The notes under the pieces were generated by a model. It was not told the origin of the DNA and did not search any database. It saw only the letters and a list, made by a program, of their open reading frames with translations. A DNA stretch of 55,642 nucleotides from Promethearchaeota archaeon (GTDB lineage: Archaea > Asgardarchaeota > Lokiarchaeia > Sigyniarchaeales > SOKP01). The position numbers were made by a program, and so were the translations under genes. The stretch is from contig JBHLMQ010000016.1 in assembly GCA_048938005.1 (NCBI GenBank), positions 1 to 55,642 of the forward strand. Direction: 5' to 3'. This document shows positions 11,370-53,544 of the stretch, piece by piece; the stretch's first letter is position 1, and every line of letters begins with the position of its first letter.

Positions 11370-11580
11370 TATCAGAGGGATTAATAATTTTATTTTTAGA
11401 AGTATGGGTAAATCTATAATATTAAGTATTAATTCCATTTCTATTAAAATTTGCACCAAATAATAAAAACTATTAATGTCTAAAAATGAAAAAGGATAAC
11501 ATTTCTGTCAAAATTTTAAAAAGGAATATAAGGTAAACGGAACTAAAATTTAATAATCTTTTAATCTTAGGTTATTTATA

Positions 11581-33069: not shown

Positions 33070-33112
33070 TTCATTATTACTATAATTTTTAATATCCTCT
33101 TAAGTGAAATTA

Positions 33113-33946: not shown

Positions 33947-33954
33947 GATGTGAT

Positions 33955-34992: not shown

Positions 34993-35029
34993 TTAATTGT
35001 TGAGATAGAAAAAATATATGAGAGAGAAA
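34990..35029 (+). repeat. 5' leader motif shared with the kat upstream region (copy 2)
   Basis: Same three 10-mers as 31776-31815, immediately before the kamA ATG. Confidence 0.55.
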
Positions 35030-35031
35030 AT

Positions 35032-36270
35032 ATGAAGGTTAACAGACGAAAAGAATTATTTTCACATGTAAGTGATGAAGATTGGAACGATTGGCGTTGG
35101 CAAGTTAAAAATAGAATAACAAGTTTAGAAGAACTTAAAAAATATATCAAACTGACTAAAGATGAAGATGATCCTCGGATATTACAAGAGTACAGGATGG
35201 CAATTACACCATATTATTTATCCTTAATTGATCCTGATGATCCATATGATCCTATAAGAAAACAAGCAATTCCCACAATTCATGAATTAGAACGATATAG
35301 TAGTGACCTCGAAGATCCCCTTAGTGAGGATATTGATTCTCCTGTTCCAGGATTAACTCATCGTTATCCGGATAGAGTATTATTTTTAGTTACTGAAAAT
35401 TGTTCAATGTATTGTAGACATTGTACAAGAAGGAGATTTGCGGGTCACCATGATATGGCCCCTCCACAAGAACAAATAGACGCTTGTATAGAATATATAG
35501 AAAAAACGCCTGCGATTAGAGATGTACTTCTATCTGGTGGAGATGCATTATTAATATCTGATAAAAAATTAGAGGAGATTCTAACAAGATTAAAAGCAAT
35601 TCCTCATGTAGAGATCATACGTATAGGTTCTAGATCTCCGGTTACGAATCCTTTCCGAATCACTCCTGAGTTATGTGAAATGCTACAAAAATACCATCCT
35701 ATTTGGTTTAATACACATTTTAATCATGCTAATGAAATTACTGAAGATTCAACGAGAGCGTGTGAAATGCTTGCGGATGCTGGAATACCTCTTGGAAATC
35801 AATCTGTTTTACTAAGAGGAGTAAATGATTGTATTCATGTAATGAAAAAATTAGTACAAGAATTAGTAAGAATACGGGTAAGACCATATTATATTTACCA
35901 ATGTGATCTTTCTGTGGGACTAGCCCATTTTAGAACGAGTGTTGCTCAAGGCATTGAGATTATTGAAGGGCTAAGGGGTCATACATCTGGTCTATGTGTG
36001 CCAACATTTGTAGTAGATGCTCCCGGAGGAGGCGGAAAAATTCCGGTTATGCCAGATTATACAATTTCTCAAGGAAATAGGCGTGTTGTATTAAGGAATT
36101 TTGAGGGAGTTATAACAACTTATGAGGAACCAGATGATTATATACCAATGTGTCATTGTGAAGAATGTGAAAAACAAATTGGAGTTAGTGCTTTATTGAG
36201 TGGTCAAAAAATGACGATCGAACCGGAGGATCTTATAAGAAAGTTAAGAAGAAGAAAACTCACTAAATAA
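35032..36270 (+). CDS. kamA: lysine 2,3-aminomutase (radical SAM, PLP)
   Basis: WNDWRWQ, GLTHRYPDR, CSMYCRHCTRRR, YQCDL, DAPGGGGKIP, C-terminal CHCEEC. Confidence 0.97.
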   Translation: MKVNRRKELFSHVSDEDWNDWRWQVKNRITSLEELKKYIKLTKDEDDPRILQEYRMAITPYYLSLIDPDDPYDPIRKQAIPTIHELERYSSDLEDPLSEDIDSPVPGLTHRYPDRVLFLVTENCSMYCRHCTRRRFAGHHDMAPPQEQIDACIEYIEKTPAIRDVLLSGGDALLISDKKLEEILTRLKAIPHVEIIRIGSRSPVTNPFRITPELCEMLQKYHPIWFNTHFNHANEITEDSTRACEMLADAGIPLGNQSVLLRGVNDCIHVMKKLVQELVRIRVRPYYIYQCDLSVGLAHFRTSVAQGIEIIEGLRGHTSGLCVPTFVVDAPGGGGKIPVMPDYTISQGNRRVVLRNFEGVITTYEEPDDYIPMCHCEECEKQIGVSALLSGQKMTIEPEDLIRKLRRRKLTK

Positions 36271-36339
36271 TTCTAAAGTTTAAATAATTAAGATTTATTT
36301 CTGTTATTAACGAAAACTCCATTAGTTTTTGGCGATCAA

Positions 36340-37371
36340 ATGGATTTCATAACTTATTTTTTGAGTAAAATTGATAGATATCAAATAATCTCAATAATAG
36401 GGCTCGCTAAAAACGTCAGTAAGACTACTACATTAAACTACATAATAAAAAATATAAAAGATTATAAACTTGGTCTTACATCTATAGGAAGAGATGGAGA
36501 AAAGTACGATGCAATTACACGTTTACCAAAACCTCGCATATTTATTAAAAAAGGTACCATTGTAGCAACAGCGAGACAGAGTTTTGAAGAGAGTGAAGTC
36601 AAAATGGAAATATTAAAAACTACAAAATTTAATACTCCATTAGGTGAAATTTTGATATTAAAGGCATTGTGCGATGGATTTATTGAATTAGCAGGACCAT
36701 CAATAAATAAGTATTTACAAGAAATATGTTTAGAATTAAAAAATTTGGGATGTGATTTAATACTAATTGATGGTGCATTTGATAGGAGATCATATGCAAC
36801 TCCTATAATATCTGACGCTACAATTCTTTCAACAGGAGCTTCTGTGTCTGAAAATATGCAAAATGTGATTAATTTAACGGTTCATACCCTTGAATTATTA
36901 AATTTAGAATGTGAAATTAACCAAGAAATAGTAGAAATTGCTAATAATATTTTGGAAAAATCAAAAATTGGAATAATTGATGATAAAAATTCTATAAAAT
37001 TGTTAAACGTCTTAACTCCATTAGATGCTACTAAGGAAATTATTGATAATTTAGGTCAAAATTCAAAATATGTTGTAATAAATGGTGCTGTAACTGATCG
37101 ATTATTAGAAAATTTAATGAAATCTACAGAGAAGTATAAAGGAGTTACATTTTTAGTGGAAGATGCAACGAAACTATTTTTGAGTAAAAAAGTAAAGCAG
37201 AAATTCCAAAAAAAAGGTGGTTTTTTGAAAGTTTTAAATCCTATAAATATAATTGCTGTTACTATAAATCCAAATTCCCCATATGGATATGACTTTGATA
37301 AAAATAAATTTTTAAACATATTAAAAGAAAATCTTGATGTACCTGTTTATGATTTAGGAGTTAATGATTAA
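36340..37371 (+). CDS. kamB: lysine 5,6-aminomutase reactivation-associated protein KamB-like
   Basis: SIIGLAKN.SKTTTLN, GLTSIGRDGE, KP.I, TPLG, IDGA.DR, ILSTGAS; lies between kamA and kamD as in clostridial clusters. Confidence 0.75.
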   Translation: MDFITYFLSKIDRYQIISIIGLAKNVSKTTTLNYIIKNIKDYKLGLTSIGRDGEKYDAITRLPKPRIFIKKGTIVATARQSFEESEVKMEILKTTKFNTPLGEILILKALCDGFIELAGPSINKYLQEICLELKNLGCDLILIDGAFDRRSYATPIISDATILSTGASVSENMQNVINLTVHTLELLNLECEINQEIVEIANNILEKSKIGIIDDKNSIKLLNVLTPLDATKEIIDNLGQNSKYVVINGAVTDRLLENLMKSTEKYKGVTFLVEDATKLFLSKKVKQKFQKKGGFLKVLNPINIIAVTINPNSPYGYDFDKNKFLNILKENLDVPVYDLGVND

Positions 37372-37440
37372 TTTGGATAAACTTATTAAAAAATTATAAT
37401 AAATTTCATAATTGTGAAAAATATAAAGGAAGTGGGAAAT

Positions 37441-39012
37441 TTGCCAGAGAGTAAAATAAATTTGGATTTTAAAATAGTCGAAAAAGCAAGAGAAGCTGCA
37501 AAAAATATTGGAATAGAGACTCAAAAATTTATAGATCAACATACTACTACAACAATAGAAAGAACAGTTTGTAGATTACTTGGTATAGATGGTGTTGATG
37601 AGTTTGAAGTTCCTCTCGCTAATATTGTCGTAGATAATATAAACAAGGGAAAAGGTCTTGGATTCGGTGCTGCTATTTATATCGGTAATGCTATACTACA
37701 AACAAGTCTTGCACCTCAATTAATTGCAGAAAAAATCGCTATAAATGAATTAGATCTAACAAAATTGCCATTAAAAGATCTATCTGAAATCAAAGCAACT
37801 GTAAACATCATTGCTCAAGAGACCTTAGTAAAAATCTCTCAAAATAAGAAAAATAGAAACAAAATACTTGAAAAATATGGTGATAAGGAGGGCCCTTTAA
37901 TTTACGTCATCGTTGCTACAGGAAACATTTATGAAGATATTATACAAGCTCAAGCTGCAGCAAGACAAGGAGCAGATGTAATTGCAGTTATTAGATCTAC
38001 AGTACAAAGTTTACTCGATTACGTACCTTATGGTCCAACAACAGAAGGATTTGGTGGAACCTATGCTACTCAAGAAAATTTCCGTCTTATGAGAAAGGCT
38101 TTAGATGAAGTAAGTGAGGAATTAGGAAGATATATAAGACTGACTAATTATTGTTCTGGATTATGTATGCCAGAAATTGCTGCTATGGGTGCTTTTGAAA
38201 GGGTTGACATGATGTTGAATGATGCATTATATGGGATTTTATTCCGTGATATAAATATGAAAAGGACTATTATCGACCAGTATTTTTCAAGGATGATAAA
38301 TGCTTACGCGGGGGTAATTATAAATACTGGTGAAGATAACTACTTAACTACAGCCGATGCATATGAAGCAGCTCACACTGTTCTTGCTTCTGAATTTATT
38401 AATGAACAATTTGCATTACTTGCAGGATTAAAGGAAGAACAAATGGGCCTAGGTCATGCTTTTGAGATGAATCCAGAGTTGGAAAATGGATTTCTGTATG
38501 AACTTGCTCAAGCTCAAATGGCACGAGAGATATTTCCAAATGCTCCTTTAAAATATATGCCTCCTACGAAATATATGACTGGAAACATATTTAAAGGACA
38601 TGTTCAAGATGCTTTATTTAATATGATAACTGTAATAACAAATCAAAGAATTCATCTCCTTGGTATGTTGACAGAAGCTATTCATACTCCTTTCATGTCA
38701 GATAGAGCATTATCTATTGAAAATGCGCGATATATATTCAACAATATGAAGTCTATTGGTGAAGAAATAGTGTTCAAGAAAGGGGGATTAATGGAAAGAA
38801 GAGTTAGTGAAGTACTTAATAAAGCTTATGATTTATTAAAAGAAATAGAAAAAGAAGGATTATTTAAAACAATTGAAAAAGGGATCTTTGCTAATATTAA
38901 AAGAACAATAGACGGGGGTAAAGGATTAGATGGTGTATTTAAGAAAGAAAAAGAATATTTTAATCCCTTTATTGAACTTATGAATAAAGAATTAACAAAA
39001 GGAGGAAATTAA
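37441..39012 (+). CDS. kamD: D-lysine/beta-lysine 5,6-aminomutase alpha subunit
   Basis: ESK.NLD, HTT..ERTVCRLLGIDG, VATGNIYED, GGTYATQENF, NYCSGLCMPEIA, KYMPPTK; TTG 37441 preferred over GTG 37414. Confidence 0.96.
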   Translation: MPESKINLDFKIVEKAREAAKNIGIETQKFIDQHTTTTIERTVCRLLGIDGVDEFEVPLANIVVDNINKGKGLGFGAAIYIGNAILQTSLAPQLIAEKIAINELDLTKLPLKDLSEIKATVNIIAQETLVKISQNKKNRNKILEKYGDKEGPLIYVIVATGNIYEDIIQAQAAARQGADVIAVIRSTVQSLLDYVPYGPTTEGFGGTYATQENFRLMRKALDEVSEELGRYIRLTNYCSGLCMPEIAAMGAFERVDMMLNDALYGILFRDINMKRTIIDQYFSRMINAYAGVIINTGEDNYLTTADAYEAAHTVLASEFINEQFALLAGLKEEQMGLGHAFEMNPELENGFLYELAQAQMAREIFPNAPLKYMPPTKYMTGNIFKGHVQDALFNMITVITNQRIHLLGMLTEAIHTPFMSDRALSIENARYIFNNMKSIGEEIVFKKGGLMERRVSEVLNKAYDLLKEIEKEGLFKTIEKGIFANIKRTIDGGKGLDGVFKKEKEYFNPFIELMNKELTKGGN

Positions 39013-39013
39013 G

Positions 39014-39802
39014 ATGGGAGGAGGATTAAATTCAATGAAAAAGGAAGAATTTGATAAAAATCTTGATTTAACAAGAATTAAACCTTACGGAGATACAATT
39101 AATGACGGTAAGATACAATTAAGTTTTACCCTACCTGTAGAACATGATGAAAAAGCAATTGAAGCAGCAAAAGAGCTAACAGAAAAAATGGGACTAAAAG
39201 ATCCAGAAGTAGTATATCATACTTTATTAGACAAAGGATTCACCTATTTTGTAGTTTATGGAGAGTTAATTCATACAATCGATTATACTAAAATTCAAGT
39301 AGAATCTGTAGATGTAGAAGTAATGTCTAGAGACGAAATTAATGATTACATTAAAGAAAAGATTGGTCGTAAATTGGTTATACTTGGAGCGTCAACAGGA
39401 AGTGATGCTCACACTGTTGGAATAGATGCAATTATAAACATGAAAGGTTTTGCTGGTCATTATGGACTTGAACATTATGAAATGATAAAAGCCATAAACT
39501 TAGGCAGTCAAGTCTCAAATGAGGAATATGTTAAGCGAGCCATAGAACTTAAAGCTGATGTATTGCTTGTCTCCCAAACAGTTACACAAAAGGATATTCA
39601 TGTGAAAAACCTAACCCAATTAGTAGAATTATTGGAAGCCGAAGGAATAAGAGATCGTGTCATTTTAATTTGCGGTGGTACTAGAATAAGTAATGATTTA
39701 GCAAAAGAATTAGGTTATGATGCAGGTTTTGGACCAGGTACTTATGCTGAAATTGTGGCGTCTTTTGCTATTAAAGAGTTTGTAAGAAGAAAAGAAATAT
39801 GA
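39014..39802 (+). CDS. kamE: lysine 5,6-aminomutase beta subunit (AdoCbl-binding)
   Basis: KPYGDT.NDG.IQLSFTLP, DAHTVG (DxHxxG), NMKG (PLP Lys), VSQTVTQ, ELGYDAGFGPG. Confidence 0.96.
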   Translation: MGGGLNSMKKEEFDKNLDLTRIKPYGDTINDGKIQLSFTLPVEHDEKAIEAAKELTEKMGLKDPEVVYHTLLDKGFTYFVVYGELIHTIDYTKIQVESVDVEVMSRDEINDYIKEKIGRKLVILGASTGSDAHTVGIDAIINMKGFAGHYGLEHYEMIKAINLGSQVSNEEYVKRAIELKADVLLVSQTVTQKDIHVKNLTQLVELLEAEGIRDRVILICGGTRISNDLAKELGYDAGFGPGTYAEIVASFAIKEFVRRKEI

Positions 39803-42683: not shown

Positions 42684-43946
42684 ATGCCAACTTCAAAAGA
42701 ATTTATTGAAATGGATCTTAAATATTGTGCGCACAATTACCATCCAATCCCCGTTGTTATTTCACGTGCAGAAGGAGTTTGGGTTTATGATCCAGAAGGT
42801 AAGAAGTATCTTGATTGTTTATCAGCTTATTCAAGTCAAAATACTGGTCATTGTCATCCAGAAATTATTGCTTCTTTAAAGGAACAAGCAGATATTGTTA
42901 CACTTACTTCTCGAGCATTTCATAATGATATGATGGGTCCTTTTTTAAAAATGTTAGCAGACGTTGTAGGGCCACATATTAATGATCCCACAAATTCCGG
43001 TATAATGTCAATTCCTATGAATACGGGAACAGAAGCAATATCGACTGGTTTAAAAATGGCAAGAGCATGGGGGTATATAAAAAAGAAAATACCCAAAAAT
43101 GAAGCTAAAATCATAGTTTGCCGAAATAATTTTCATGGAAGAACCATTACCATTGTTGGTTTTAGTTCTGATATATCAGTGGTTCGCTATTATGGCAATT
43201 TTGGACCATATACCCCTGGTTTTATTATTATCCCTTATGGAGATGCTGAAGAATTAGAAAATGTTATTTTGGAAATTGGACCTGAAAAAGTAGCTGCTTT
43301 TTTGGTTGAGCCTATCCAAGGAGAAGCTGGCGTTAATGTCCCTCCAGAAGGATATTTAAGAAAAGCTCGAGAAATCTGTACAAAATATAATGTGTTGATG
43401 ATGTTAGATGAAATTCAAACTGGTTTTTGCAGAACGGGAGAGTTGTTTGCTTGTGATCATGAAAATGTAAAACCAGATATGCTACTATTAGGGAAAGCCC
43501 TTGGAGGCGGAGTGTATCCTGTGTCTGCCTGTGTAACCACAAGAGAAATTATAGGCCCAGATGTGATAATTCCTGGAAGTCATGGAAGCACTTTTGGAGG
43601 AAATCCTTTGGCTTGTGCTGTGGCAATGAAATCTATAGATATTCATCTACGTGAGAATCTTGCCGAGCGAGCAAAGGAGATGGGTGCTTACTTTATAAAA
43701 AGATTAAGAGAAATTGGTGAGAAAAGAACTAAAATTCCAATTAAAGATATAAGGGGGAAAGGGTTATTAATTGCTGTCGAATTTTCGGAGGATGCTAGAC
43801 AAATTGTTGAAGAACTCAAAGATAATGGAATATTAGCAAAAGATACACATTCTACAACTATTCGTTTTGCCCCACCCTTGGTTATTACGAAAGATGAGCT
43901 TGATTGGGCACTTGAAATCATAGAAAAAGTATTTGTAAAGCAATAA
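42684..43946 (+). CDS. rocD: ornithine--oxo-acid aminotransferase
   Basis: AHNYHP.PVV, LSAYS..N.GHCHP, LTSRAFHND, PMNTG.EA, FHGRT, EPIQGEAG, DEIQTG, LGKAL, HGSTFGGNPLAC. Confidence 0.93.
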   Translation: MPTSKEFIEMDLKYCAHNYHPIPVVISRAEGVWVYDPEGKKYLDCLSAYSSQNTGHCHPEIIASLKEQADIVTLTSRAFHNDMMGPFLKMLADVVGPHINDPTNSGIMSIPMNTGTEAISTGLKMARAWGYIKKKIPKNEAKIIVCRNNFHGRTITIVGFSSDISVVRYYGNFGPYTPGFIIIPYGDAEELENVILEIGPEKVAAFLVEPIQGEAGVNVPPEGYLRKAREICTKYNVLMMLDEIQTGFCRTGELFACDHENVKPDMLLLGKALGGGVYPVSACVTTREIIGPDVIIPGSHGSTFGGNPLACAVAMKSIDIHLRENLAERAKEMGAYFIKRLREIGEKRTKIPIKDIRGKGLLIAVEFSEDARQIVEELKDNGILAKDTHSTTIRFAPPLVITKDELDWALEIIEKVFVKQ

Positions 43947-43949
43947 AGA

Positions 43950-44867
43950 CTATTTATCTATAAAAAAATGAGTCCCAGCTCTTCCTTCTAATGCCTCTTC
44001 AATTTTTTCAATTGAAGTTATAATCGCTTTTTCTCCACCTTTTTCCATAAAATTTATTATTGCTTGAATTTTAGGGCCCATACTTCCAGCAGGAAATTGT
44101 CCTTCTTCCAAATATTTCTTTGCTTCTGCGATAGTAAGCTTATCTAAATCTTTTTGGTTAGGTGTACCATAATTAAGAGCAACTTTCTCAACATCAGTAG
44201 CAATGAGTAGTATATCCGCTCCTATTTGTTCAGCTAATTTAGAACTAGCAAGATCTTTATCTATTACAGCTTCAACACCATATAATCTTTTTGCTTCTTT
44301 TATAACGGGTATACCCCCTCCACCGCATGCAATTACAATCCAACTTTCTAATTCCATTAACTTCTTTATTTCACGCCATTGATAAATTTTTATTGGATTA
44401 GGAGAAGGAACAACTTGACGCCATCCTTTAGCTGTTTTAACCTGACCTGGTTTTGTGCGAACAGGATATGCAGGACCAATAGGTTTTGTGGGATTTTTAA
44501 ACGCAGGATCTTCAGCATCAACTTTCACATAGGTTAATACTGTTAAAAAAAGTTTTTCTTCATCGAGATTTATTTTCATAAGCTCCTCGTCTAATGTGCT
44601 CTCAATCATGAATCCAATCTGACCTTGGGTTTCTGCTACTAATATTTGTAACGGTCTTTTTGATACAAATTCAGTTGCTTCCTGTTGAAGTAAGAGATTA
44701 CCAACTTGTGGGCCATTACCATGTGTTATAATTATATTGTAGTTTTTTGCTAATTCTGCAATTTGGCTAATTGGAACTCTTAAATTCCGAAATTGTTCCT
44801 CAGTAGTGCCTTCTTCACCAAATTTTATTAAAGCATTTCCACCGAGTGCGACAATTAATGTTTTCAA
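43950..44867 (-). CDS. arcC: carbamate kinase
   Basis: ALGGNAL, THGNGPQVG, F.NPTKPIGP, R.VVPSP, GGGGIPV, EAVIDKD, GSMGPK. Confidence 0.96.
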   Translation of the reverse strand: MKTLIVALGGNALIKFGEEGTTEEQFRNLRVPISQIAELAKNYNIIITHGNGPQVGNLLLQQEATEFVSKRPLQILVAETQGQIGFMIESTLDEELMKINLDEEKLFLTVLTYVKVDAEDPAFKNPTKPIGPAYPVRTKPGQVKTAKGWRQVVPSPNPIKIYQWREIKKLMELESWIVIACGGGGIPVIKEAKRLYGVEAVIDKDLASSKLAEQIGADILLIATDVEKVALNYGTPNQKDLDKLTIAEAKKYLEEGQFPAGSMGPKIQAIINFMEKGGEKAIITSIEKIEEALEGRAGTHFFIDK

Positions 44868-44933
44868 AAAAAATTCTCCAATATATATTTAATTTCCACA
44901 AATGGAAAAAATAAATATTATTTAACTTATTAT

Positions 44934-45866
44934 TTAAAATTTATCTCGTAAAAAGAGCATAATAGCTTTTTGGATATGTAATCTATTTTCAGCTTGGTCA
45001 AATACAATTGATTGAGGACCGTCAATAACCTTTGCCGTTTGTTCATAATCCCTCATAGCTGGCAAGCAATTCATAAACACAGCATTGGGTTTTGCTGTTA
45101 ACATAATTGATTTTGTCACTTGAAATGGCATAAAAACTTTTTTTCTTTCTTCTTCTTTGTCTGCTGGAATACCATAACTCATCCAACTATCAGTATAAAT
45201 AACATCAGCGTCTCTAGCAGCTCCCATTGCTTCATGAACTACTCTTACATCAGCTCCAGTTTCTTTAGAAAGTTCTGATACCTCATTCAAAACGATTTTC
45301 TCCGGAGAATATTGTGGATCAGCTGGGCAAGCTACATCCATTCTCCAGCCAAACATAGCACACATCCTCATTAAATCATATGTTACATTATTGTAAGCAT
45401 CCCCAAAATATGATAACTTTAAGTTATCAAGCTTACCTTTTTTCTCTTTTATAGTCAAAAAATCACCTAGGATTTGACATGGGTGTGCGAAATCATCCAA
45501 CATATTTATCACCGGGACATCGGCATATTTAGCGAGATCCCAAATATCTTGCCTTTTAAAAACCCTGGCAGCGATGATATTAACAAATCTAGAAGCAACT
45601 TTCGCTGTATCCGAAATGTTTTCCTTTTTCCCTAAGGGTGAATCTTTTATTGAGTAAAAAATTGCATGCCCTCCTAATTGTTGCATGCCAGTCTCAAAAG
45701 ATATTCGAGTTCTTAAGGAAGGCTTTTCAAATAGCATTAAGAGGGTTTCTCCTTCTAAAAAAGAACTAAATTTTTTAGGATTTTTCTTTAACTCAATTGC
45801 TTTATTAATAACCCTCTCGCATTCAGCCTTTGAAAAATCTGAGACTTTTAATAGATGTCTAACCAT
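44934..45866 (-). CDS. arcB: ornithine carbamoyltransferase (Giardia/metamonad-like signature)
   Basis: KPSLRTR, HPCQ, NNVTYDLMR, YTDSWMSY, FMNCLPA.R..EQT..VIDGP.S, QAENRLH. Confidence 0.93.
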   Translation of the reverse strand: MVRHLLKVSDFSKAECERVINKAIELKKNPKKFSSFLEGETLLMLFEKPSLRTRISFETGMQQLGGHAIFYSIKDSPLGKKENISDTAKVASRFVNIIAARVFKRQDIWDLAKYADVPVINMLDDFAHPCQILGDFLTIKEKKGKLDNLKLSYFGDAYNNVTYDLMRMCAMFGWRMDVACPADPQYSPEKIVLNEVSELSKETGADVRVVHEAMGAARDADVIYTDSWMSYGIPADKEEERKKVFMPFQVTKSIMLTAKPNAVFMNCLPAMRDYEQTAKVIDGPQSIVFDQAENRLHIQKAIMLFLRDKF

Positions 45867-45974
45867 TTTCAGTATTTTAGAATTTTAGATAATAATTAAG
45901 TATTAAAAAGAAAGATTAGATATAAATCAAAATATATGAATTACAACAGCTTATATTATCCAATTTCAGAAGAT

Positions 45975-47141
45975 TCATTTCAGTTCTTCTTCAACACAAA
46001 AGTCTCTGTTACATGAGAGATTATTTAAGATTTCATTATCCTTTGGAGTTGTCTTTTCTGTTATTAGCCGACTTAAAAGTTCTCCTAAACCTGGTCCCAG
46101 CATAAAGCCTTGGCCACACATACCAACTGCATTAATATAACCCTCTATTTCACCTACTTTACCAATTATAGGATTTCCATCTGGTGTCATCGGATACAGA
46201 CCACGCCAAGTTCTTCTAACTTTTATATTTCTTAACCGTGGCAACAAATGTATCATTCTTTTTGAAATCTGAGGTAGGAAAGAACTTGTTTCTTGTCTGT
46301 CAATACCAGGGATATTTGGTTCAGGTGTTAAGCAAAAAATAATTTTTCCTTCTTTATTTTGATAGAAATAATAGTTGCTTGAATTTCCAAATTTAGGGTC
46401 GATAAATGGTTTAATATCAACAATCATGGATGAGAAAAATTTCTTTACCGGCTCAGTTATTCCTGCTTCATGAGATTCTGGTTCTACTGGAGTAATAACA
46501 CTAACCATATTACCAATCTCTTTTGCATGAGCTCCTGCAGCATTGATAATAGAGTTAGTTTTATATTTTCCATTAGAAGTTTTAATCCCTACAACTTTAT
46601 CTTTTTTAGTTAAGATATCAATAACTTTTTCATTAAAATGATATTCCGCTCCTGAATTTTTTGAGTATCTATAGAATGAATGTAAGGCCAATAAAGGTGA
46701 AGCATTACCATCTTCAGGACTATGCGTTCCACCTAACAATTCATTTTCATTGATTCCAGGTAAAATCTCTTTGATTTTTTCAGCGTCAACATAGTTAATA
46801 TTCAAACCGTAACTTTTTTGAACTTTTACTGTATCCTTTAATAATTTTTCATGTTCTTCTGTGAATGCTAAGAAAGTATAACCACCTTGATTCCACCAGA
46901 TATCATCTCCATACTTTTCTTCCCAAGAAGAAAAAATTTCTATTGACCTTTGGCATAACCATATCTTTCCTTTATGTGAGTGAGTAGCTCTAATACCACC
47001 AATAGCATGTTTATTGTCTGCTTGAGCAACTGAAGGCAAATAATCGATAACCAATGTTTTTAATCCATCATTTACAGTAGCTAGAGCAGTTGGGACGCCT
47101 ACACTTCCAGCACCGATGATGATAACATCATATTCAACCAT
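45975..47141 (-). CDS. FAD-dependent amine oxidoreductase (proline dehydrogenase/sarcosine oxidase beta-like)
   Basis: GAGSVG, INAAGA.A, ITEP, R.W.G.Y.MTPDGNPIIG, G.GFMLGP. Confidence 0.88.
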   Translation of the reverse strand: MVEYDVIIIGAGSVGVPTALATVNDGLKTLVIDYLPSVAQADNKHAIGGIRATHSHKGKIWLCQRSIEIFSSWEEKYGDDIWWNQGGYTFLAFTEEHEKLLKDTVKVQKSYGLNINYVDAEKIKEILPGINENELLGGTHSPEDGNASPLLALHSFYRYSKNSGAEYHFNEKVIDILTKKDKVVGIKTSNGKYKTNSIINAAGAHAKEIGNMVSVITPVEPESHEAGITEPVKKFFSSMIVDIKPFIDPKFGNSSNYYFYQNKEGKIIFCLTPEPNIPGIDRQETSSFLPQISKRMIHLLPRLRNIKVRRTWRGLYPMTPDGNPIIGKVGEIEGYINAVGMCGQGFMLGPGLGELLSRLITEKTTPKDNEILNNLSCNRDFCVEEELK

Positions 47142-49226
47142 CTAAGGCTCCTCCTTTTTATTTTTAACATTAGCAAATATACCCATCGGAACTTCAATAA
47201 ACAGAGGACGTTTTGTACCAGGAATAACATCGTCAACCGATACTCCTTCTTCCCGAAATATCTTCTCGATTAAAGGAGTGCATGTTTTACCTCCACAAGC
47301 TCCCATTCCTACTTTAGTTAAAGCCTTCAATTCATTAAAATCTCTGACTCCTGACCGTATCCACCTTCGAATTTCACCTACTGAAACACGTTCACATCTA
47401 CATACTATAATTTTATCATCAGTAAATGATCTTTGGTAAACATCTATTGGCTCATTAAATTTAGTCTCATAAAGTTTAATTGCTACAGCTTGTTTTGCCA
47501 ATTCTGATGTTAATTTAATAGTTATTAGTTGAGTCTTAGGAAATTCTTTCAATATTCTCGATCTATGAATTTCATATGCCCCTAATTCTCCTTCATTGCT
47601 AATAACAATAACTTTTTGTCCTTTCTCTAATTTCTTTTCAGTAAGTTCAAACGGAAAAGTAACTAGTGGATTTTTTTTATCTTTACGATAATCAATTAAT
47701 ACAACAGCTAAACCAGGACACACAGCTACACATTTTCCACATCCAATACAATCTTTTTCACCCTTAAAATATGGTAATTGGGTAATTAAATCATCAATAG
47801 TCTCAATTTGTTTTTGATCACATACAGTTGTACATGGATTACAGGGAATTTCTTGATTACAATAAAAAACAGGATAGATTCCTTCTTCTTTGAATTTTAT
47901 TTTCGTTTCAATAGGTTGTGGAGGTTTTGCTTTCATGACTTCTGCAAAATTTTCTAATTCATTAATATCTTCTGAAATTTCAATTCCAATTTCTCTAAGA
48001 ATCTTTAAAGCTTCAATTCTTCCAGTAAATATAGCAGCAGAAGCTTCAGCGATCTCTTGAGCATCACCAGCAACCCAAACCTTAAATCCAAATTCTTTTG
48101 CTTTCTGATAAAATTCATCGACAGGATTTAAACCTATAGCAATTAAAATAGTATCACAAACAAATGTTTTTTCTGTTCCAGATATAATATTAAAATCCCT
48201 ATCAATTTGAGCAATTGTTATAGATTCTACTGATTTATCCCCATTAGCAGAGACGATCGTATGACTTGTGTAGATTGGAACACCTAATCTTCTAAGTTTG
48301 TCTTCATGGACTTTATAACCTCCACATAGAGGTAATGCTTCAATTAAACCAATGACATCTATTCCTGCTTGAATTGCATGATATCCAGCAATTAATCCAA
48401 CATTTCCTCCTCCAACAATAAAAATTTTGTCTGCAGCTTTTACTAAATCACGATTTACCAATGTTTGAAAAGCTCCAGCACCATATACTCCGGGAAGGGT
48501 ATTTCCAGGAAAAACTAACATTTTTTCCCTTGCACCAGTAGCAATTAATAAGTACTTAGGCTTCACCAAAACATATTTATTATTATCCTTTAAAATTCCT
48601 ACCATCCCATCGCTAAATACTGCTAAACAAACACTATTTAACCAAATTTTAATTTTAGATAATCCTCGAATAGATTCCCCTAAAATTTTTGCAATATCTA
48701 TGCCACGTTTACCAGCATAAACATCTTTTTGTGAGCCAAAAAATTTATGTGTTTGAAGAACCAATTTACCTCCAAGTTCAGCTTTATCGTCAATTAAGAT
48801 CACCTCAACATTATTTTCTCCTAATATTTTTGTGGCTGATAATCCTGCTGGACCAGCACCTATAACCAATACTTCTATGTCTATAATTTCAGAATCTCCA
48901 ACAGTCACAGGATTATCAATTGCAGGTAATTCTGGTAATCCATTACAACTTTCTATTACCATCCCTTCTTTAAGAGGTGTCATGCATGCTTTTACTGGAA
49001 TACCATATACAATAACATTACATTGAGCACATTGACCATTAGCACAAAACATACCCTGAGGGCTGTTGTCTTTTGGGTGATAACCAAAAATTTTTATTTT
49101 ATTAAGAAAAAGCGCTGATGATATAACCATTCCTTCAAATCCATTTAACTTTATACCATCAAAACTAAAATTAATCTTCTTTCTTTCTGGTATCTCTAAA
49201 ATAGGATGTGTTATTATATCTTCCAT
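47142..49226 (-). CDS. proline dehydrogenase/sarcosine oxidase alpha-like multidomain subunit (2Fe-2S + FAD/NAD + 4Fe-4S + BFD-like)
   Basis: CANGQCAQC..KAC; GAGPAGL, GGKLVLQTHKFFG, ATGARE, GGGNVG; CNPCTTVC, CIGCGKCVAVCPG; CRCE...GMGACGGKTC..RP. Confidence 0.88.
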   Translation of the reverse strand: MEDIITHPILEIPERKKINFSFDGIKLNGFEGMVISSALFLNKIKIFGYHPKDNSPQGMFCANGQCAQCNVIVYGIPVKACMTPLKEGMVIESCNGLPELPAIDNPVTVGDSEIIDIEVLVIGAGPAGLSATKILGENNVEVILIDDKAELGGKLVLQTHKFFGSQKDVYAGKRGIDIAKILGESIRGLSKIKIWLNSVCLAVFSDGMVGILKDNNKYVLVKPKYLLIATGAREKMLVFPGNTLPGVYGAGAFQTLVNRDLVKAADKIFIVGGGNVGLIAGYHAIQAGIDVIGLIEALPLCGGYKVHEDKLRRLGVPIYTSHTIVSANGDKSVESITIAQIDRDFNIISGTEKTFVCDTILIAIGLNPVDEFYQKAKEFGFKVWVAGDAQEIAEASAAIFTGRIEALKILREIGIEISEDINELENFAEVMKAKPPQPIETKIKFKEEGIYPVFYCNQEIPCNPCTTVCDQKQIETIDDLITQLPYFKGEKDCIGCGKCVAVCPGLAVVLIDYRKDKKNPLVTFPFELTEKKLEKGQKVIVISNEGELGAYEIHRSRILKEFPKTQLITIKLTSELAKQAVAIKLYETKFNEPIDVYQRSFTDDKIIVCRCERVSVGEIRRWIRSGVRDFNELKALTKVGMGACGGKTCTPLIEKIFREEGVSVDDVIPGTKRPLFIEVPMGIFANVKNKKEEP

Positions 49227-49257
49227 TTAAAATCTAAATTAATCTTTTTAAGAATAT

Positions 49258-51438
49258 TCATTGGTGAGGTTTTATGAACTTTATGACATCTTCATAATCA
49301 ATTCCTAGTTCTTTTACTTTTTCAATTGTAGGGCAACCATTTTGATTCCATCCCCGTTCTTTATAGACAGCATCTTGAAGCTTCGAATACTGTTCTTCGC
49401 GATGTTTTCGAAGAATTTTAATCTTTTCTTCTGTCATCTTATCAGTTAAATCAAATCCTAATTCTTTAAGTTGGTTATCATATCTATCTTGGCGACTCTC
49501 GTATTCTAAAGGTAAAACTGGCCCCATTGCTCTATAAGGTAGATTTGAGTCACCTTCACGTAAGCCTTGTCCTAAACGAATATTAAAAATTCTTTGAAAA
49601 TTGTAAACTCGTTCTGACATTTTAATAAGATCATCTGGAGTTGAATTTCTACCCGTTACAGCTGAAAAATATTTTGCATACCATTCAACATGATAAGGTA
49701 TTCTTGCTTGAAGGAGTTCTCCTGTGGTAGGATCTTTTACAGGAAGTTCTTTATTTTGGGGCCCTATAGCATCATTCCAAGGTAATTTACAAAGCCCATT
49801 CAATCCGAACCAGGTTCGCCAATAAGGAAACCACCTTAATGCCTTTGCTTTATCTTCAAAAGTTGGAATTGTATTTCTTACCATATCTTCAAAAATTAAC
49901 CAGGCTTCATCATGTTGAGGTCCTTTGAGTGCTAACCCGTATCCTCCTTGTTGAGCGAGAGATTCTTTTGTTATATATTCTGAGAATTCTAGACCTTTAT
50001 GTTCCATACCAATATCTTGAAGAAATTGAGGATCCCCACCATAATTTTCAGCAAAATATTTCTTCATTTCTCTTATCCCTTTTCCCACAATTACTCCAAA
50101 ACCTTCTCCTCTCGCCATCTGATGAAGTAATTCTAAAGCTGCTTCAGCATTACCAAAATTAAGTTCAAGACCTCCAGTAATTTCTTTATCAAGTATTCCT
50201 TCTTCATAACATTCCATTACAAACCCAATCCCTGTACCCGTTGATATAGTGTCCAATCCATATGTATCACAATAGAAATTCACTTCAAGAACCCATTTTA
50301 TATCCCAAACACCCCAATTTGAACCACAACCAGCTATAGTTTCATATTCTGGTCCATCTACGATCACTTCTTGACCTTTAAAAGGACCTGTCAAAACTTT
50401 ATGTCCAGTTGTATAGTGTGAGCAACTCATTGTACAACCAATCCAGCACCCATCCGTCCCTTCTTTTACATGATACACCTTTCGCATTCTCTCGCGACTA
50501 TAAGGTATATTTTTATCTTTTATATCTTTATGAGAACCATAACGAAAATTTTCAACTGGTAAAAGATCAACAACATTCATTATATCTGGTAAATATCCAG
50601 TTCCTACACTCCTCATTTCATTCTGCGAGGAGTCAATATCAACAATTTCCTTACTATGTATTTTCCCTAACTCTCTAGCAGCTTCTAAATCTGCAGGATT
50701 ATTTGATTTTACCGTGACTCTAGGAGCACGACAGACCAAAGCCTTTATTTTTTTATTAGAAAATACTGTTCCTATACCGCCCCGCCCCGCTTGTTTAACA
50801 GAAGCATATTTACGTGTTGTAGTGTACCAAGAGAAATTTAACATCCCCCATTTTGAGTGTTTTGCAGCTGGACCACTGCTTACAACCGAGATCTGTCTTT
50901 TTTCAGCATCATCTTTCGCATATTTTTCTGTTAATTGTTGGTTGAGTTCATGCGAGTATTCTGAAAATCCATCTGAATCTTGTACTTGATATATTTGGAC
51001 TAAGCCTTCTATCCCATCAATAGAGATAATCACATCGCTTTCTGCTTTTCCTTGGATCTCAATAGCATCAAATCCAGAAAATTTTAGATACGGTCCAAAA
51101 TATCCACCCACGTTACTGTCTATAATTATACCTGTTAAAGGAGATATTGAAGTAACTAAGGATTTACCTGATCCTGGATAAAAAATACTACCTCCTAATG
51201 GTCCGGAAGAAATACAAATTTCATTTTCAGGGTCATTCCATTTAATTATACGATCTTTTGGGATAGAATTCCACATAACCCATAAATCAAAACCCTTTCC
51301 TCCGATAAATTTTTCTTTCATTTCTTCAGAGACAAGCTTTATAGTAATCTCATTTCTTGAAAGGTTGACATATAAAGTTCGATTTGCATAACCCTTTTGA
51401 ACTTCTTGGATTTCAAATTTCTTTTCTGCCAAAATCAT
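49258..51438 (-). CDS. aor: aldehyde:ferredoxin oxidoreductase family protein, paralog 3 (long type)
   Basis: FIGGKG, SPLTG...DSNVGGYFGP, QAGRGG.G, CWIGCTMSC, GPEYET, CDTYGLDTIS, KGPQHDEAWL, RGW...G.PT. Confidence 0.9.
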   Translation of the reverse strand: MILAEKKFEIQEVQKGYANRTLYVNLSRNEITIKLVSEEMKEKFIGGKGFDLWVMWNSIPKDRIIKWNDPENEICISSGPLGGSIFYPGSGKSLVTSISPLTGIIIDSNVGGYFGPYLKFSGFDAIEIQGKAESDVIISIDGIEGLVQIYQVQDSDGFSEYSHELNQQLTEKYAKDDAEKRQISVVSSGPAAKHSKWGMLNFSWYTTTRKYASVKQAGRGGIGTVFSNKKIKALVCRAPRVTVKSNNPADLEAARELGKIHSKEIVDIDSSQNEMRSVGTGYLPDIMNVVDLLPVENFRYGSHKDIKDKNIPYSRERMRKVYHVKEGTDGCWIGCTMSCSHYTTGHKVLTGPFKGQEVIVDGPEYETIAGCGSNWGVWDIKWVLEVNFYCDTYGLDTISTGTGIGFVMECYEEGILDKEITGGLELNFGNAEAALELLHQMARGEGFGVIVGKGIREMKKYFAENYGGDPQFLQDIGMEHKGLEFSEYITKESLAQQGGYGLALKGPQHDEAWLIFEDMVRNTIPTFEDKAKALRWFPYWRTWFGLNGLCKLPWNDAIGPQNKELPVKDPTTGELLQARIPYHVEWYAKYFSAVTGRNSTPDDLIKMSERVYNFQRIFNIRLGQGLREGDSNLPYRAMGPVLPLEYESRQDRYDNQLKELGFDLTDKMTEEKIKILRKHREEQYSKLQDAVYKERGWNQNGCPTIEKVKELGIDYEDVIKFIKPHQ

Positions 51439-51606
51439 AGAATTTCATTCCTTAAAGTTCTAATTGTTAAATTAAAAACATAATTATAAACTATGGATGA
51501 TTTAATGAGACTTTAGAATTAAATATTATTTATACAAATCTAAGTTAAGTATTTGAAAAAAAGATATAGAATGATCTTAAATTGTTTTATTCCGAAAAGG
51601 GTTAAT

Positions 51607-52170
51607 TTAAATTTTATTAGCTAAATCTTTAGCCCATTTACGAATCTCGTCCCAGTTTCTTGAATCATAAACTCCTGGTTCTGTTTCTTTAAATCCTGCT
51701 GGAATGAAATTATCTTTTTCAGCATCTAGGGCTTTTCTATAAATTTTACCCATCTGATTATAGTCCCAGATACCTCCAAACATATTCATTGAGATTGGAT
51801 TTAAACCATATTTAGAAGCTTTACCTTTAAGATATTTTTTAGTTATTCTATCAATTTCATCATGTTTTCCTTTATATTCCATGAGTGCTCGCCCACCAGA
51901 CGACACGAAGAGTGCCACTTTCTTTTTTTTGAGCTCATTGCTAAACTTATTTAAAAATGCTTTAGCTTTACTCGTCCACATGTCCATTTTCATTCCACTA
52001 GCAACTATAACAAGTTCAAATTTTGATATATCTTTGACCTTCTCTTCTTTGAGATTTACAGTTTTTACTTCAAATCCTTCACCTTGAAAAACTTTGGCAA
52101 TTTCTTCTGCGGTACCAGCTGTTGCTCCATAACGAGTACCATACGCAATTAATATTTTGGTTTTTTCCAT
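51607..52170 (-). CDS. flavodoxin-domain protein (HemG-like long-chain flavodoxin)
   Basis: ILIAYGTRYGAT..AEEIA, VALFVS, FGG, D.RNWDEIRKWA. Confidence 0.85.
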   Translation of the reverse strand: MEKTKILIAYGTRYGATAGTAEEIAKVFQGEGFEVKTVNLKEEKVKDISKFELVIVASGMKMDMWTSKAKAFLNKFSNELKKKKVALFVSSGGRALMEYKGKHDEIDRITKKYLKGKASKYGLNPISMNMFGGIWDYNQMGKIYRKALDAEKDNFIPAGFKETEPGVYDSRNWDEIRKWAKDLANKI

Positions 52171-52203
52171 TTTCTTCCCTCTATTAAAATCTAATTTTTA
52201 TTG

Positions 52204-53544
52204 TTATTTTTTTAAGAATTTATTAATAAAATCATCAAGAACTTCTTCAATAGTAGGACTTCCGATTGGCTCAATATCATACGATACTTTCACAATTGGT
52301 TTATTTGTTTTAATTAATTTAGTTAAGTCTATAGGACTTCCATTTAGGATTATATCTGCCTTCGCATTATTGAGTGTTTTTTCTAAGTCTTCTATTTGTT
52401 GGTCTGTGTATCCCATAGCAGGTACAATTTGTGTAATCTGAGGGAAATCTTCGAATACCTCTTTCATAGATCCTACTAAATATTTTCTGGGGTCCATAAT
52501 TTTAGCTTCTGCATTTATAGCAGCAACATATGCCGCTCCAATTGACATGCCTCCATGAGTCAAAGTAGGGCCATCCTCGACGACTACAACTTTCTTTCCT
52601 TTCAGTTTTAAATGATCTTCTGCTTTAACTACTGAATTTGTATAGACTTTTACGGCTTTTGGATTTAAATCATTAAGGTTTTTCTCCACAATTTTTACAT
52701 CTTCTGGTTTGGCAGTATTCATTTTGTTTATGACAAAAACATCTGCATACTTTGCATTAACTTCTCCGGGATGATATTTAATTTCGTGTCCCGGTCTTAA
52801 TGGATCAGTCACAACAAAAAGTAAATCTGTAATATAAAAAGATATCTCATTATTTCCTCCATCGAATATAATCACATCTGCTTCTTTTTCAGCCTCCCGA
52901 ATTATTTTCTCATAATCAACTCCAGAATATATTACTAATCCTTGCTCAATATAAGGTTCATATTCTTCCCGTTCTTCAATAGTACAATCATATTTATCTA
53001 AATCCTCATATTTCTCAAATCTCATTACATTTTGTTGAACTAAGTCTCCGTAAGGCATTGGCTCGCGAATCGCAACAACTTTGTACCCTTTACTCTTTAA
53101 ATACCGATATGTTGCTCGAGAAACTTGACTTTTTCCACACCCCGTCCTAACAGCACAGATTGCAATAACAGGCTTATTAGCCTTGAGTTGAGTGAATTTT
53201 CCTGAAATTAATCGGTAATTAGCACCAGCAGCGAGTGCTCTTGAAGCTTTATGCATGACTTCCTCATGAGAAACATCTGAATAGGCAAAAACAACCTCAT
53301 CAACGTTATGTTTCTTAATCAAATCTTCAAGCATGTCTTCTGAGACCATTGGAATTCCTTTTGGATATAATTTTCCTGCCAATTCTGCAGGAAACTTTCT
53401 TTCAGCTTCATCAGTAGTACCAATGTTTTGTTCTCCAGCAATAGTAAACGTTATAACATCATATTCTGCATTGTCTCTAAAAACTGTGTTAAAAACATGG
53501 AAATCGTAACCTAATGCTCCAATGATAATAACTTTTTTTTTCAT
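52204..53544 (-). CDS. COG2403 P-loop protein, arginine synthetase (ArcE)-like
   Basis: DFH.FN..FRDN, VFAYSDV, AVRTGCGKSQ, PMPYGDL, TIEEREEYE, GVDY, DGGNN, YHPGE, VEDGPTLTHGGM, PAMGY; clustered with arcB/arcC with no arginine deiminase in the window. Confidence 0.8.
   Translation of the reverse strand: MKKKVIIIGALGYDFHVFNTVFRDNAEYDVITFTIAGEQNIGTTDEAERKFPAELAGKLYPKGIPMVSEDMLEDLIKKHNVDEVVFAYSDVSHEEVMHKASRALAAGANYRLISGKFTQLKANKPVIAICAVRTGCGKSQVSRATYRYLKSKGYKVVAIREPMPYGDLVQQNVMRFEKYEDLDKYDCTIEEREEYEPYIEQGLVIYSGVDYEKIIREAEKEADVIIFDGGNNEISFYITDLLFVVTDPLRPGHEIKYHPGEVNAKYADVFVINKMNTAKPEDVKIVEKNLNDLNPKAVKVYTNSVVKAEDHLKLKGKKVVVVEDGPTLTHGGMSIGAAYVAAINAEAKIMDPRKYLVGSMKEVFEDFPQITQIVPAMGYTDQQIEDLEKTLNNAKADIILNGSPIDLTKLIKTNKPIVKVSYDIEPIGSPTIEEVLDDFINKFLKK

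Follow-up and report, generated by a model that had tools for sequence, protein, structure and literature searches.

The locus described here lies in a stretch of 55,642 nt, contig JBHLMQ010000016.1 of assembly GCA_048938005.1 from a Promethearchaeota archaeon, read on the forward strand and called the window below. Seven co-oriented minus-strand genes, which run from arcE, a predicted arginine synthetase gene, to the carbamate kinase gene arcC, converge there on an eighth gene, rocD. Between arcE and arcB sit genes for a flavodoxin-fold protein, a member of the aldehyde:ferredoxin oxidoreductase (AOR) family and a two-subunit flavoenzyme, termed alpha and beta. Taken together, we regard it as somewhat probable that the pathway encoded here is that of arginine synthetase and serves mainly to break arginine down, with the inserted genes acting at the node of glutamate 5-semialdehyde (GSA) and pyrroline-5-carboxylate (P5C). 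The features are, in order from arcE:

52204..53544, minus strand: arcE, predicted arginine synthetase orthologue, 446 aa, by homology to Thermococcales proteins
51607..52170, minus strand: flavodoxin-fold protein, candidate electron acceptor, 187 aa (Flavodoxin_5, 60.3 bits)
49258..51438, minus strand: AOR-family aldehyde:ferredoxin oxidoreductase, a distinct paralogue, 726 aa (AFOR_N and AFOR_C)
47142..49226, minus strand: alpha subunit of a proline-dehydrogenase/opine-dehydrogenase-type flavoenzyme, 694 aa (Pfam domains, PDB matches)
45975..47141, minus strand: beta subunit (catalytic, DAO-family) of the same enzyme, 388 aa (DAO, 192.8 bits)
44934..45866, minus strand: arcB, ornithine carbamoyltransferase (OTC), 310 aa (TIGR00658)
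43950..44867, minus strand: arcC, carbamate kinase, 305 aa (TIGR00746)
42684..43946, plus strand: rocD, ornithine--oxo-acid transaminase, 420 aa (TIGR01885), converging on arcC

From the open reading frame (ORF) coordinates, the intergenic gaps are 33, 168, 31, 0, 108 and 66 bp in arcE-to-arcC order, with 31 bp separating the AOR gene from alpha and 0 bp separating alpha from beta. The ends of rocD and arcC are 3 bp apart. An earlier annotation of the window, made from its letters alone (the sequence-only reading), had described seven co-oriented minus-strand genes with these gaps converging on rocD, and the ORF table confirms it. The same reading had proposed a single-locus module for arginine and proline; its genes, their linkage and the Asgard origin that it named stand, but it gave the AOR no role and overlooked that AOR and alpha–beta had been inserted into an older arc operon.

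The protein predicted to be ArcE matched no profile in Pfam or NCBIfam. It aligned end to end with a protein of Thermococcus sp. 21S9 (P0328) at 56% identity over 440 aa with 6 gaps (514 bits), and was 54.6-57.0% identical to six Thermococcales proteins from Thermococcus, Pyrococcus and Palaeococcus. The 90% cluster of P0328 has 201 members; among the 15 listed are proteins of several Thermococcus species and of Palaeococcus pacificus. Across 31 other family members, 80 alignment columns reach at least 95% conservation, and 77 of these are identical in the window protein, the three deviations being Y/F, W/F and T/S, and its TGCGKS motif is that of the Thermococcus protein. In Thermococcus kodakarensis, the family member TK2200 has been demonstrated to be an arginine synthetase (Michimori et al. 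2024, PMC11032458). The same paper places arcE homologues throughout Thermococcales and in Lokiarchaeota, near arcB and/or arcC in some genomes, and describes cyclic 2,3-diphosphoglycerate (cDPG) synthases as only distant relatives of ArcE. On sequence comparison, the window protein is very probably an ArcE orthologue, and its gene is present in single copy in the genome.

The only PDB match of this protein was a cDPG synthetase, 9sxb (22 bits, E 5e-4), which scores 41.7 bits against the Thermococcus protein. As a candidate identity, cDPG synthase was rejected: similarity to the solved enzyme is confined to residues 201-326 and does not extend over the full length. The sequence-only reading had taken this COG2403 protein for ArcE rather than a cDPG synthase, and the scores (514 bits to the Thermococcus protein against 22 to 9sxb) together with the conserved columns agree. 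ArcE homologues 82-94% identical to the window protein occur across many Asgard assemblies, where their source names are 'cyclic 2,3-diphosphoglycerate synthase' or 'GTPase', and for the family representative P0199 the ESM Atlas returned only family-level names. The NCBI name 'cyclic 2,3-diphosphoglycerate synthase', carried by Asgard and Thermococcales members, is probably a propagated misnomer, since the Thermococcales family is the one demonstrated to be arginine synthetase.

An ArcE homologue was also found in a eukaryote, the ichthyosporean Creolimax fragrantissima (P0132), whose protein is 46-48% identical to that of the window. It groups with the Lokiarchaeial ArcE clade at a local support of 0.998 in a FastTree tree of 41 sequences with no outgroup, in which ArcE proteins from the remaining Asgard families lie dispersed among those of bacteria. 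This placement is compatible with transfer, contamination and vertical descent alike.

The remaining genes of the arginine pathway were assigned by curated profiles. ArcB scored 353.6 bits against TIGR00658 (cut-off 280.85), and the genome has no other OTC, the next match being 27% identical. Putrescine carbamoyltransferase was rejected for this protein, as its model gave 284.6 bits, under the cut-off of 500. ArcC scored 374.7 bits against TIGR00746 (cut-off 358.25), and a second, partial copy of arcC with 75% identity lies on contig C33. RocD reached 520 bits against TIGR01885 (cut-off 378.4) and 530.3 bits against the stricter ornithine aminotransferase (OAT) model NF003145, under its cut-off of 656.

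We searched the genome (95.28% complete, 7.23% contamination) for other genes of arginine, ornithine and proline metabolism. Consistent with the sequence-only reading, profile searches of the window returned neither an arginine deiminase (ADI) nor an arginase. The genome as a whole gave no match to ADI (ArcA, PF02274) and no arginase, its single arginase-fold protein scoring higher as an agmatinase (169.8 bits) than as an arginase (102.2 bits); ArcE co-occurs in it with arcB and arcC in the absence of arcA. Argininosuccinate synthase (ASS), argininosuccinate lyase (ASL), ArgJ, ProA, ornithine cyclodeaminase and PutA-type proline dehydrogenase (Pro_dh) were not found in the genome, the two lyase matches being PurB and fumarase, and ArgC/LysY gave nothing above a 31-bit fragment. 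The large subunit of carbamoyl-phosphate synthase (CPS; 1467 bits) and ProC are present. One generic aldehyde dehydrogenase was found, which reaches no cut-off for P5C dehydrogenase (P5CDH). The organism is probably an arginine auxotroph.

Across the order, ADI-family matches occurred in 37 of 154 genomes, and just one was full length (G163; 161.8 bits, profile positions 4-377); the other 36 covered part of the profile at 19.7-35.2 bits. ArcE is missing from the genus of G163 (0 of 2 genomes), which echoes the complementarity of ArcE and ADI reported in PMC11032458. The open frame of the G163 ADI (G163:C12:73454-74647, L176) is 759 aa long, about twice the length of the ADI profile.

Synteny sets the arginine genes apart from the genes inserted among them. 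Of 400 Asgard genomes, 296 have an ArcE homologue (E <=1e-20), as do 70 of the 90 that are of high quality. Around ArcE, 20 loci were fetched. Ten of these, from genera g1, g12 and g2 of the window's family and g15 of a sister family, hold arcE, AOR, alpha and beta in the order of the window, accompanied by arcB in 9, arcC in 7, rocD in 5 and the flavodoxin in 5. Contig ends cut off the flavodoxin in two more; with a presence in 5 of 10 related full clusters, it is dispensable to the cluster. Three further loci, in the closed genomes G135, G138 and G143, show a plain same-strand operon arcE-arcB-arcC-rocD, one shows arcE-arcB-arcC, and the last six, from other families with ArcE 52-57% identical, have none of these neighbours. 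The simpler operon of the closed relatives supports the link with OTC, carbamate kinase and RocD that the sequence-only reading had drawn.

The linked arrangement is widespread. In at least 54 species-level genomes from six genera, arcE, AOR and alpha lie on one contig within about 10 kb, a lower bound that was collated by hand from the best match positions listed, and the order of the cluster is kept at identities down to 65-68%. The arrangement is not due to chance. Elsewhere, the units are independent of one another. More than 80 kb separates arcE, AOR and alpha from one another in closed G135, G138 and G143. Of 400 Asgard genomes, 129 carry the fused alpha, and at 12 of 12 loci fetched from other lineages beta comes directly after it, without an arc or AOR gene as neighbour. 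Outside Asgard, 80 ArcE loci were listed (64-82% identity to the Thermococcus query, mostly Chloroflexota, no Thermococcales). Among them, arcE adjoins arcB or arcC in 9 and an OAT-like rocD (54% identity) in 1, and none has AOR, alpha or beta beside arcE. From this distribution, we take the core arc operon to be old and AOR-alpha-beta to be a lineage-specific accretion of two units. Two features appear to be new, namely the plain arcE-arcB-arcC-rocD operon of related closed genomes and the wedging of AOR and alpha–beta between arcE and arcB in the 54 or more genomes.

Inspection of the alpha subunit, also single copy in the genome, revealed Fer2_4, Pyr_redox_2, 4Fe-4S dicluster and BFD-like 2Fe-2S domains in Pfam, that is, a 2Fe-2S, FAD/NAD-binding, 2x[4Fe-4S] and BFD-like 2Fe-2S architecture. 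Its PDB matches were 2GAG_A (86.6 bits) and 1Y56_A (72.9 bits). Invariant in 25 orthologues are, in order, C-x4-C-x2-C-x11-C (C61, C66, C69, C81), GxGxxG, two ferredoxin-type Cys groups (C456/462/465/469 and C493/496/499/503) and C-x-C...C-x4-C (C609, C611, C644, C649); the first, second and fourth of these motifs are those given for the alpha/beta/gamma dehydrogenase family (PMC4575208). In archaeal L-proline dehydrogenase (L-ProDH), the N-terminal ~120 residues of alpha correspond to the bacterial gamma subunit (PMC4575208). The gamma-alpha 'fusion' is thus partly ancestral, as the archaeal alpha already holds a gamma-like N terminus, and what is extra in the window alpha is a ferredoxin-like domain (694 aa, against 493 aa for 1Y56_A).

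The best PDB match of beta was 1Y56_B, the beta subunit of the Pyrococcus horikoshii L-proline dehydrogenase, at 181 bits, followed by the next at 83 bits. For this enzyme, the D-proline dehydrogenase model NF040813 gave 32.7 bits, under the cut-off of 600. The window pair has the layout of archaeal L-ProDH, a DAO-family beta with an adjacent alpha that bears 2Fe-2S and ADP-binding motifs. The wider family also includes opine, D-hydroxyproline and HCN-forming enzymes. Octopine and nopaline, both conjugates of arginine, are substrates of its flavin-containing opine dehydrogenases, and one opine-dehydrogenase subfamily that lies near archaeal L-ProDH shows no activity on proline (PMC4575208). 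Because this L-ProDH-like subfamily does not accept proline, the substrate of alpha–beta is unreadable from similarity, and that the enzyme acts on proline or P5C is a suggestion that falls a little short of even chances.

The AOR carries both family domains (AFOR_N, 159 bits; AFOR_C, 327 bits), and its best PDB matches were 1AOR (183 bits) and the formaldehyde:ferredoxin oxidoreductase (FOR) 1B25 (160 bits). In its alignment with Pyrococcus furiosus AOR and FOR, the cluster cysteines, the catalytic His and two short stretches, E-Y-E and D-T-I-S, coincide. C331, C335, C339, C550, E366 and H509 are invariant in 28 orthologues, and we take the roles of these Glu, His and Cys residues to be those described for 1AOR. 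The protein is no more than 28% identical to the roughly 14 other AOR-family tblastn matches in the genome, and it lies under every curated NCBIfam cut-off (YdhV-type, 112.6 against 868; glyceraldehyde-3-phosphate:ferredoxin oxidoreductase, 43 against 1300). Orthologues at 57-92% identity (E <=1e-120) occur in 230 of 400 Asgard genomes. Sequence does not show which metal an enzyme of the AOR family carries, and one clade is reported to prefer Mo (PMC12096430). For P. furiosus FOR, whose substrate is believed to be a C5 semialdehyde, the lowest Km is that for glutaric dialdehyde, and the enzyme was crystallized with glutarate bound (PMC12096430). The 31 and 0 bp spacing with alpha–beta and the lack of a recognisable P5CDH in the genome make the window AOR a candidate for GSA oxidation, a role that we put forward only tentatively.

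Two more AOR paralogues lie in the window, at 625-2547 (minus strand), paired with a gene at 67-624 (minus strand), and at 19941-21821 (plus strand), paired with 18631-19917 (plus strand). A 4Fe-4S dicluster protein neighbours one of the paralogues, and an iron alcohol dehydrogenase and an aminotransferase neighbour the other.

About 3 kb from the arginine cluster and outside the module lies a second set of catabolic genes:

31816..39802, plus strand: lysine-fermentation cluster (context)

It comprises a class-III aminotransferase, Kce (BKACE), Kdd, KamA (lysine 2,3-aminomutase), the KamB reactivase, and KamD and KamE, the alpha and beta subunits of D-lysine 5,6-aminomutase. Kdd scored 269 bits against NF052381 (cut-off 200) and KamB 407 bits against NF052386 (cut-off 210). 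The lysine cluster is complete and sits directly upstream of the arginine genes, and the window resembles a catabolic island for basic amino acids. Between the two clusters, and divergent from rocD, is an 846-aa gene of the penicillin-amidase family (Ntn hydrolase; 39919-42459, minus strand), a homologue of which adjoins arcC in the related genome G238. A Ras-family small GTPase is encoded at 10845-11459 (minus strand), and a Gtr1/RagA-family protein lies near the alpha–beta pair of another family (L082:5956-6828); both belong to the eukaryote-like small GTPases usual in Asgard genomes.

From these assignments we propose a pathway in which protein identities come from homology and the chemistry from analogy to the T. 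kodakarensis enzyme. ArcE would convert arginine, ADP and Pi to citrulline, NH3 and ATP, ArcB would split citrulline by phosphorolysis into ornithine and carbamoyl phosphate, and ArcC would draw a second ATP from the carbamoyl phosphate, which would amount to 2 ATP per arginine. RocD would then transaminate ornithine to GSA, in equilibrium with P5C. In the Lokiarchaeial lineage, the alpha–beta dehydrogenase and the AOR, often with the flavodoxin, would have been recruited between arcE and arcB, and both may act at the GSA/P5C node, alpha–beta by interconverting proline and P5C and the AOR by oxidising GSA to glutamate and passing the electrons to flavodoxin or ferredoxin, in place of the missing P5CDH. 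As in T. kodakarensis, P5C from the pathway would also be available for proline, with ProC completing a possible route to proline in a genome that lacks ProA.

Breakdown is the likely main direction. It is favoured because relatives have this cluster alongside canonical arginine biosynthesis, because carbamate kinase is present beside a true CPS, because RocD is part of the operon, and because the lysine-fermentation cluster lies nearby. The G238 cluster has gained a generic aldehyde dehydrogenase gene between arcC and arcB (L043:2937-4439), which suggests that the pathway needs an aldehyde-oxidising step. Among the closed relatives, G135 and G143 lack Aldedh-family genes entirely yet keep rocD in the operon, and G138 has two true P5CDHs. 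A more far-reaching proposal, which we consider rather unlikely, is that AOR and alpha–beta form an NAD- and quinone-independent analogue of PutA plus P5CDH, with proline and ornithine converging on the conversion of GSA to glutamate. If true, arginine would be fermented fully to glutamate with two substrate-level ATP and low-potential reductant. In its boldest form, the ferredoxin-like domain of alpha would couple the high-potential proline step to the low-potential aldehyde step by electron confurcation.

Several observations weigh against an arginine-degrading pathway with the inserted genes at the GSA/P5C node. For the first enzyme, the comparison covered Thermococcales orthologues other than TK2200. 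The AOR orthologues are widespread, and 17 of the 20 loci fetched around them have no arc, alpha or beta gene, the other three being clusters cut by contig ends; these stand-alone AOR loci share no neighbour across families. Moreover, in genera g5, g6 and g11, 16 of 20 genomes have the AOR, none has alpha and one has ArcE. Since it is common in genera without ArcE and alpha, the AOR is not dedicated to the arginine pathway. Nor need it perform the aldehyde oxidation, as the G238 cluster shows, and the generic aldehyde dehydrogenase of the window genome could oxidise GSA. A 308-aa Thermus-type, PutA-family Pro_dh lies near alpha–beta in 4 of the 12 loci from other lineages, representing three other families (L082:10425-11354, with homologues in L083, L084 and L087; PF01619, 101.9 bits; NF045947, 175 bits, under its cut-off of 500), and this proximity suggests that alpha–beta is tied to proline but is not the only proline dehydrogenase. 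In relatives the cluster is broken up by unrelated genes (ThiC, a cation-efflux protein, a TPR protein, an amidohydrolase), including a 540-aa Amidohydro_3 protein between beta and arcB in three genomes (L040:3495-5111; homologues in L066 and L067), and closed G189 has no arcB or arcC within 3 kb after beta. As to direction, the reversibility of ArcE and a genome that lacks ASS, ASL, ArgJ and ArgC mean that the route may also run towards arginine. RNA runs were sought, and none was listed.

The best surviving alternative, though still an unlikely one, is that AOR, alpha–beta and the flavodoxin form an unrelated module inside the arc cluster, with shared regulation at most and no common intermediates. 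Such a module might be, for example, a secondary-amine/opine dehydrogenase or a sarcosine-type enzyme whose aldehyde product is oxidised by the AOR. The independence of the three units in the closed genomes, the solitary AOR loci, the alpha–beta pairs of other lineages and the intrusion of other unrelated genes all fit this explanation, as does a dehydrogenase family that has opine, D-hydroxyproline and HCN-forming members and an L-ProDH-like subfamily inactive on proline (PMC4575208). What it leaves aside is the insertion order, kept in those 54 or more genomes of six genera despite identities as low as 65-68%. In addition, RocD and a proline dehydrogenase would give exactly one aldehyde, GSA, the genome has no P5CDH equivalent, and in G238 a second type of aldehyde-oxidising gene, Aldedh, has been recruited into the same cluster.

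Less probable again, at perhaps one chance in five, is that the same enzymes run as a non-canonical arginine synthesis that replaces the lost ASS/ASL and ArgJ/ArgC. GSA would come from proline through alpha–beta or from glutamate through the AOR as a carboxylate reductase, RocD would turn it into ornithine, ArcB would form citrulline using carbamoyl phosphate that either CPS or carbamate kinase supplies, and ArcE would produce arginine with ATP and NH3. ArcE is reversible, with K about 10, and supports arginine synthesis in vivo, and synthesis by this enzyme has been raised as a possibility for organisms without ASS/ASL (PMC11032458). The window genome, without ASS, ASL, ArgJ, ArgC and ProA but with CPS, would suit such a route, and ArcE-rich genera are ASS-poor and vice versa: ArcE and ASS are found in 32 and 6 of 53 genomes in g1 and in 30 and 4 of 42 in g12, against 0 and 9 of 10 in g11 and 0 and 4 of 4 in g6. 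However, ArcE, ASS and ArgC occur together in nine genomes (G184, G207, G210, G227, G244, G249, G268, G275 and G277), eight of which have the same linked cluster. Because these nine carry both, the cluster is not a substitute for canonical biosynthesis. Where CPS is present, synthesis has no need of carbamate kinase; genes for RocD and carbamate kinase typically belong to catabolism, and the neighbouring genes ferment lysine. ASS and ArgC, which are found in the same 40-odd genomes of the order and usually side by side, have been lost together, as fits plain auxotrophy.

Some of the matches counted here contain in-frame stops. Five of the 48 ASS matches listed (G159, G167, G168, G169 and G276) have 1-2 in-frame TGA codons and are about 30 nt longer, and several ArcE matches in genus g12 have one in-frame TAA near the end. 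Recoding, small insertions and assembly errors are possible explanations.

It is improbable that alpha–beta is an opine-type dehydrogenase that acts on octopine-like N-carboxyalkyl-arginine or -ornithine and releases arginine for ArcE. Opine dehydrogenases do belong to the same alpha/beta/gamma family, one subfamily lying near archaeal L-ProDH (PMC4575208), and the alpha–beta genes sit among arginine-catabolic genes, but such a reaction would yield arginine plus a 2-oxo acid and give no reason for the close linkage of the AOR, the pair of other families lies near a PutA-type proline dehydrogenase rather than arc genes, and the best solved relative is a proline enzyme. Almost certainly wrong is the identification of the predicted ArcE as a cDPG synthase or generic GTPase, for which the NCBI and JGI names of homologues and the marginal 9sxb match speak, and against which stand the far higher score to a Thermococcus protein, the fact that Thermococcales proteins bear the same name yet are published as arginine synthetase, and an operon shared with arcB, arcC and rocD.

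Part of this picture is already known. The ArcE pathway, its occurrence in Lokiarchaeota and the clustering of arcE with arcB/arcC are published (PMC11032458), so the novelty that the sequence-only reading implied for its core finding was overstated. Among the papers that a limited literature search listed, with the supplement of PMC11032458 outside its scope, we found no description of an Asgard operon containing rocD, of the accretion of AOR and alpha–beta into the arc operon, or of the relation between ArcE and lost arginine biosynthesis in the order. The words arginine, ornithine and proline are all absent from the description of Promethearchaeum (PMC11316595).

The first description of arginine synthetase dates from as recently as 2024 and concerns a hyperthermophile. 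The present locus suggests that its pathway is the common Asgard way of handling arginine, with ArcE in 296 of 400 genomes and a full-length ADI in 1 of 154 genomes of the order. In most members of the window's genus, it goes together with a canonical arginine biosynthesis that has been lost entirely. A slow-growing syntroph that lives by fermenting amino acids would gain much from an additional ATP per arginine. The lineage-specific joining of three once-separate units also offers a testable candidate for two orphan functions, namely the physiological substrate of a widespread, uncharacterised AOR clade and the conversion of proline and ornithine to glutamate in anaerobes without PutA or P5CDH.

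Of the known systems, the closest is the T. kodakarensis pathway (ArcE TK2200, ArcB TK0871, ArcC TK2158; PMC11032458, PMC13260591), which has the same set of ArcE, OTC and carbamate kinase, likewise no ADI, and ornithine as the likely source of proline. The genes form a cluster here, whereas their locus numbers in T. kodakarensis are widely spaced; the present unit also includes rocD and has AOR, the alpha–beta flavoenzyme and the flavodoxin inserted. T. kodakarensis also needs the pathway for carbamoyl phosphate, a need that the true CPS removes here. With the arginine deiminase (arcABC) pathway the locus shares the OTC and carbamate kinase steps and their clustering, but in place of ArcA it has ArcE, which would conserve a further ATP (PMC11032458).

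The inserted enzymes can likewise be set beside solved relatives. The P. horikoshii alpha4beta4 L-proline dehydrogenase (1Y56) provides the best solved match of beta, and the window alpha shares with its family the gamma-like N-terminal 2Fe-2S, ADP-binding and C-x-C...C-x4-C motifs, whereas the extra 2x[4Fe-4S] ferredoxin-like domain accounts for a length well beyond that of 1Y56_A. Opine dehydrogenase, D-hydroxyproline dehydrogenase and HCN synthase, compared by description only (PMC4575208), belong to the same superfamily and have the same cofactor motifs; in contrast to the alpha/beta/gamma opine-type enzymes, the window alpha includes gamma as a fused part. The tungsten enzymes AOR and FOR of P. 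furiosus (1AOR, 1B25) share both AFOR domains, and their cluster cysteines and Glu/His second-shell residues align with those of the window AOR, which is nevertheless about 120 residues longer and scores only 183 and 160 bits against them. The cDPG synthetase 9sxb is a distant homologue and the sole solved relative of ArcE, in a different gene context. Finally, the overall chemistry proposed here resembles that of the PutA and RocD/RocA routes, in which proline or ornithine passes through GSA/P5C to glutamate; unlike in those routes, there is no Pro_dh or P5CDH, and the proposed stand-ins come from unrelated families, so that the likeness would be one of functional analogy only.

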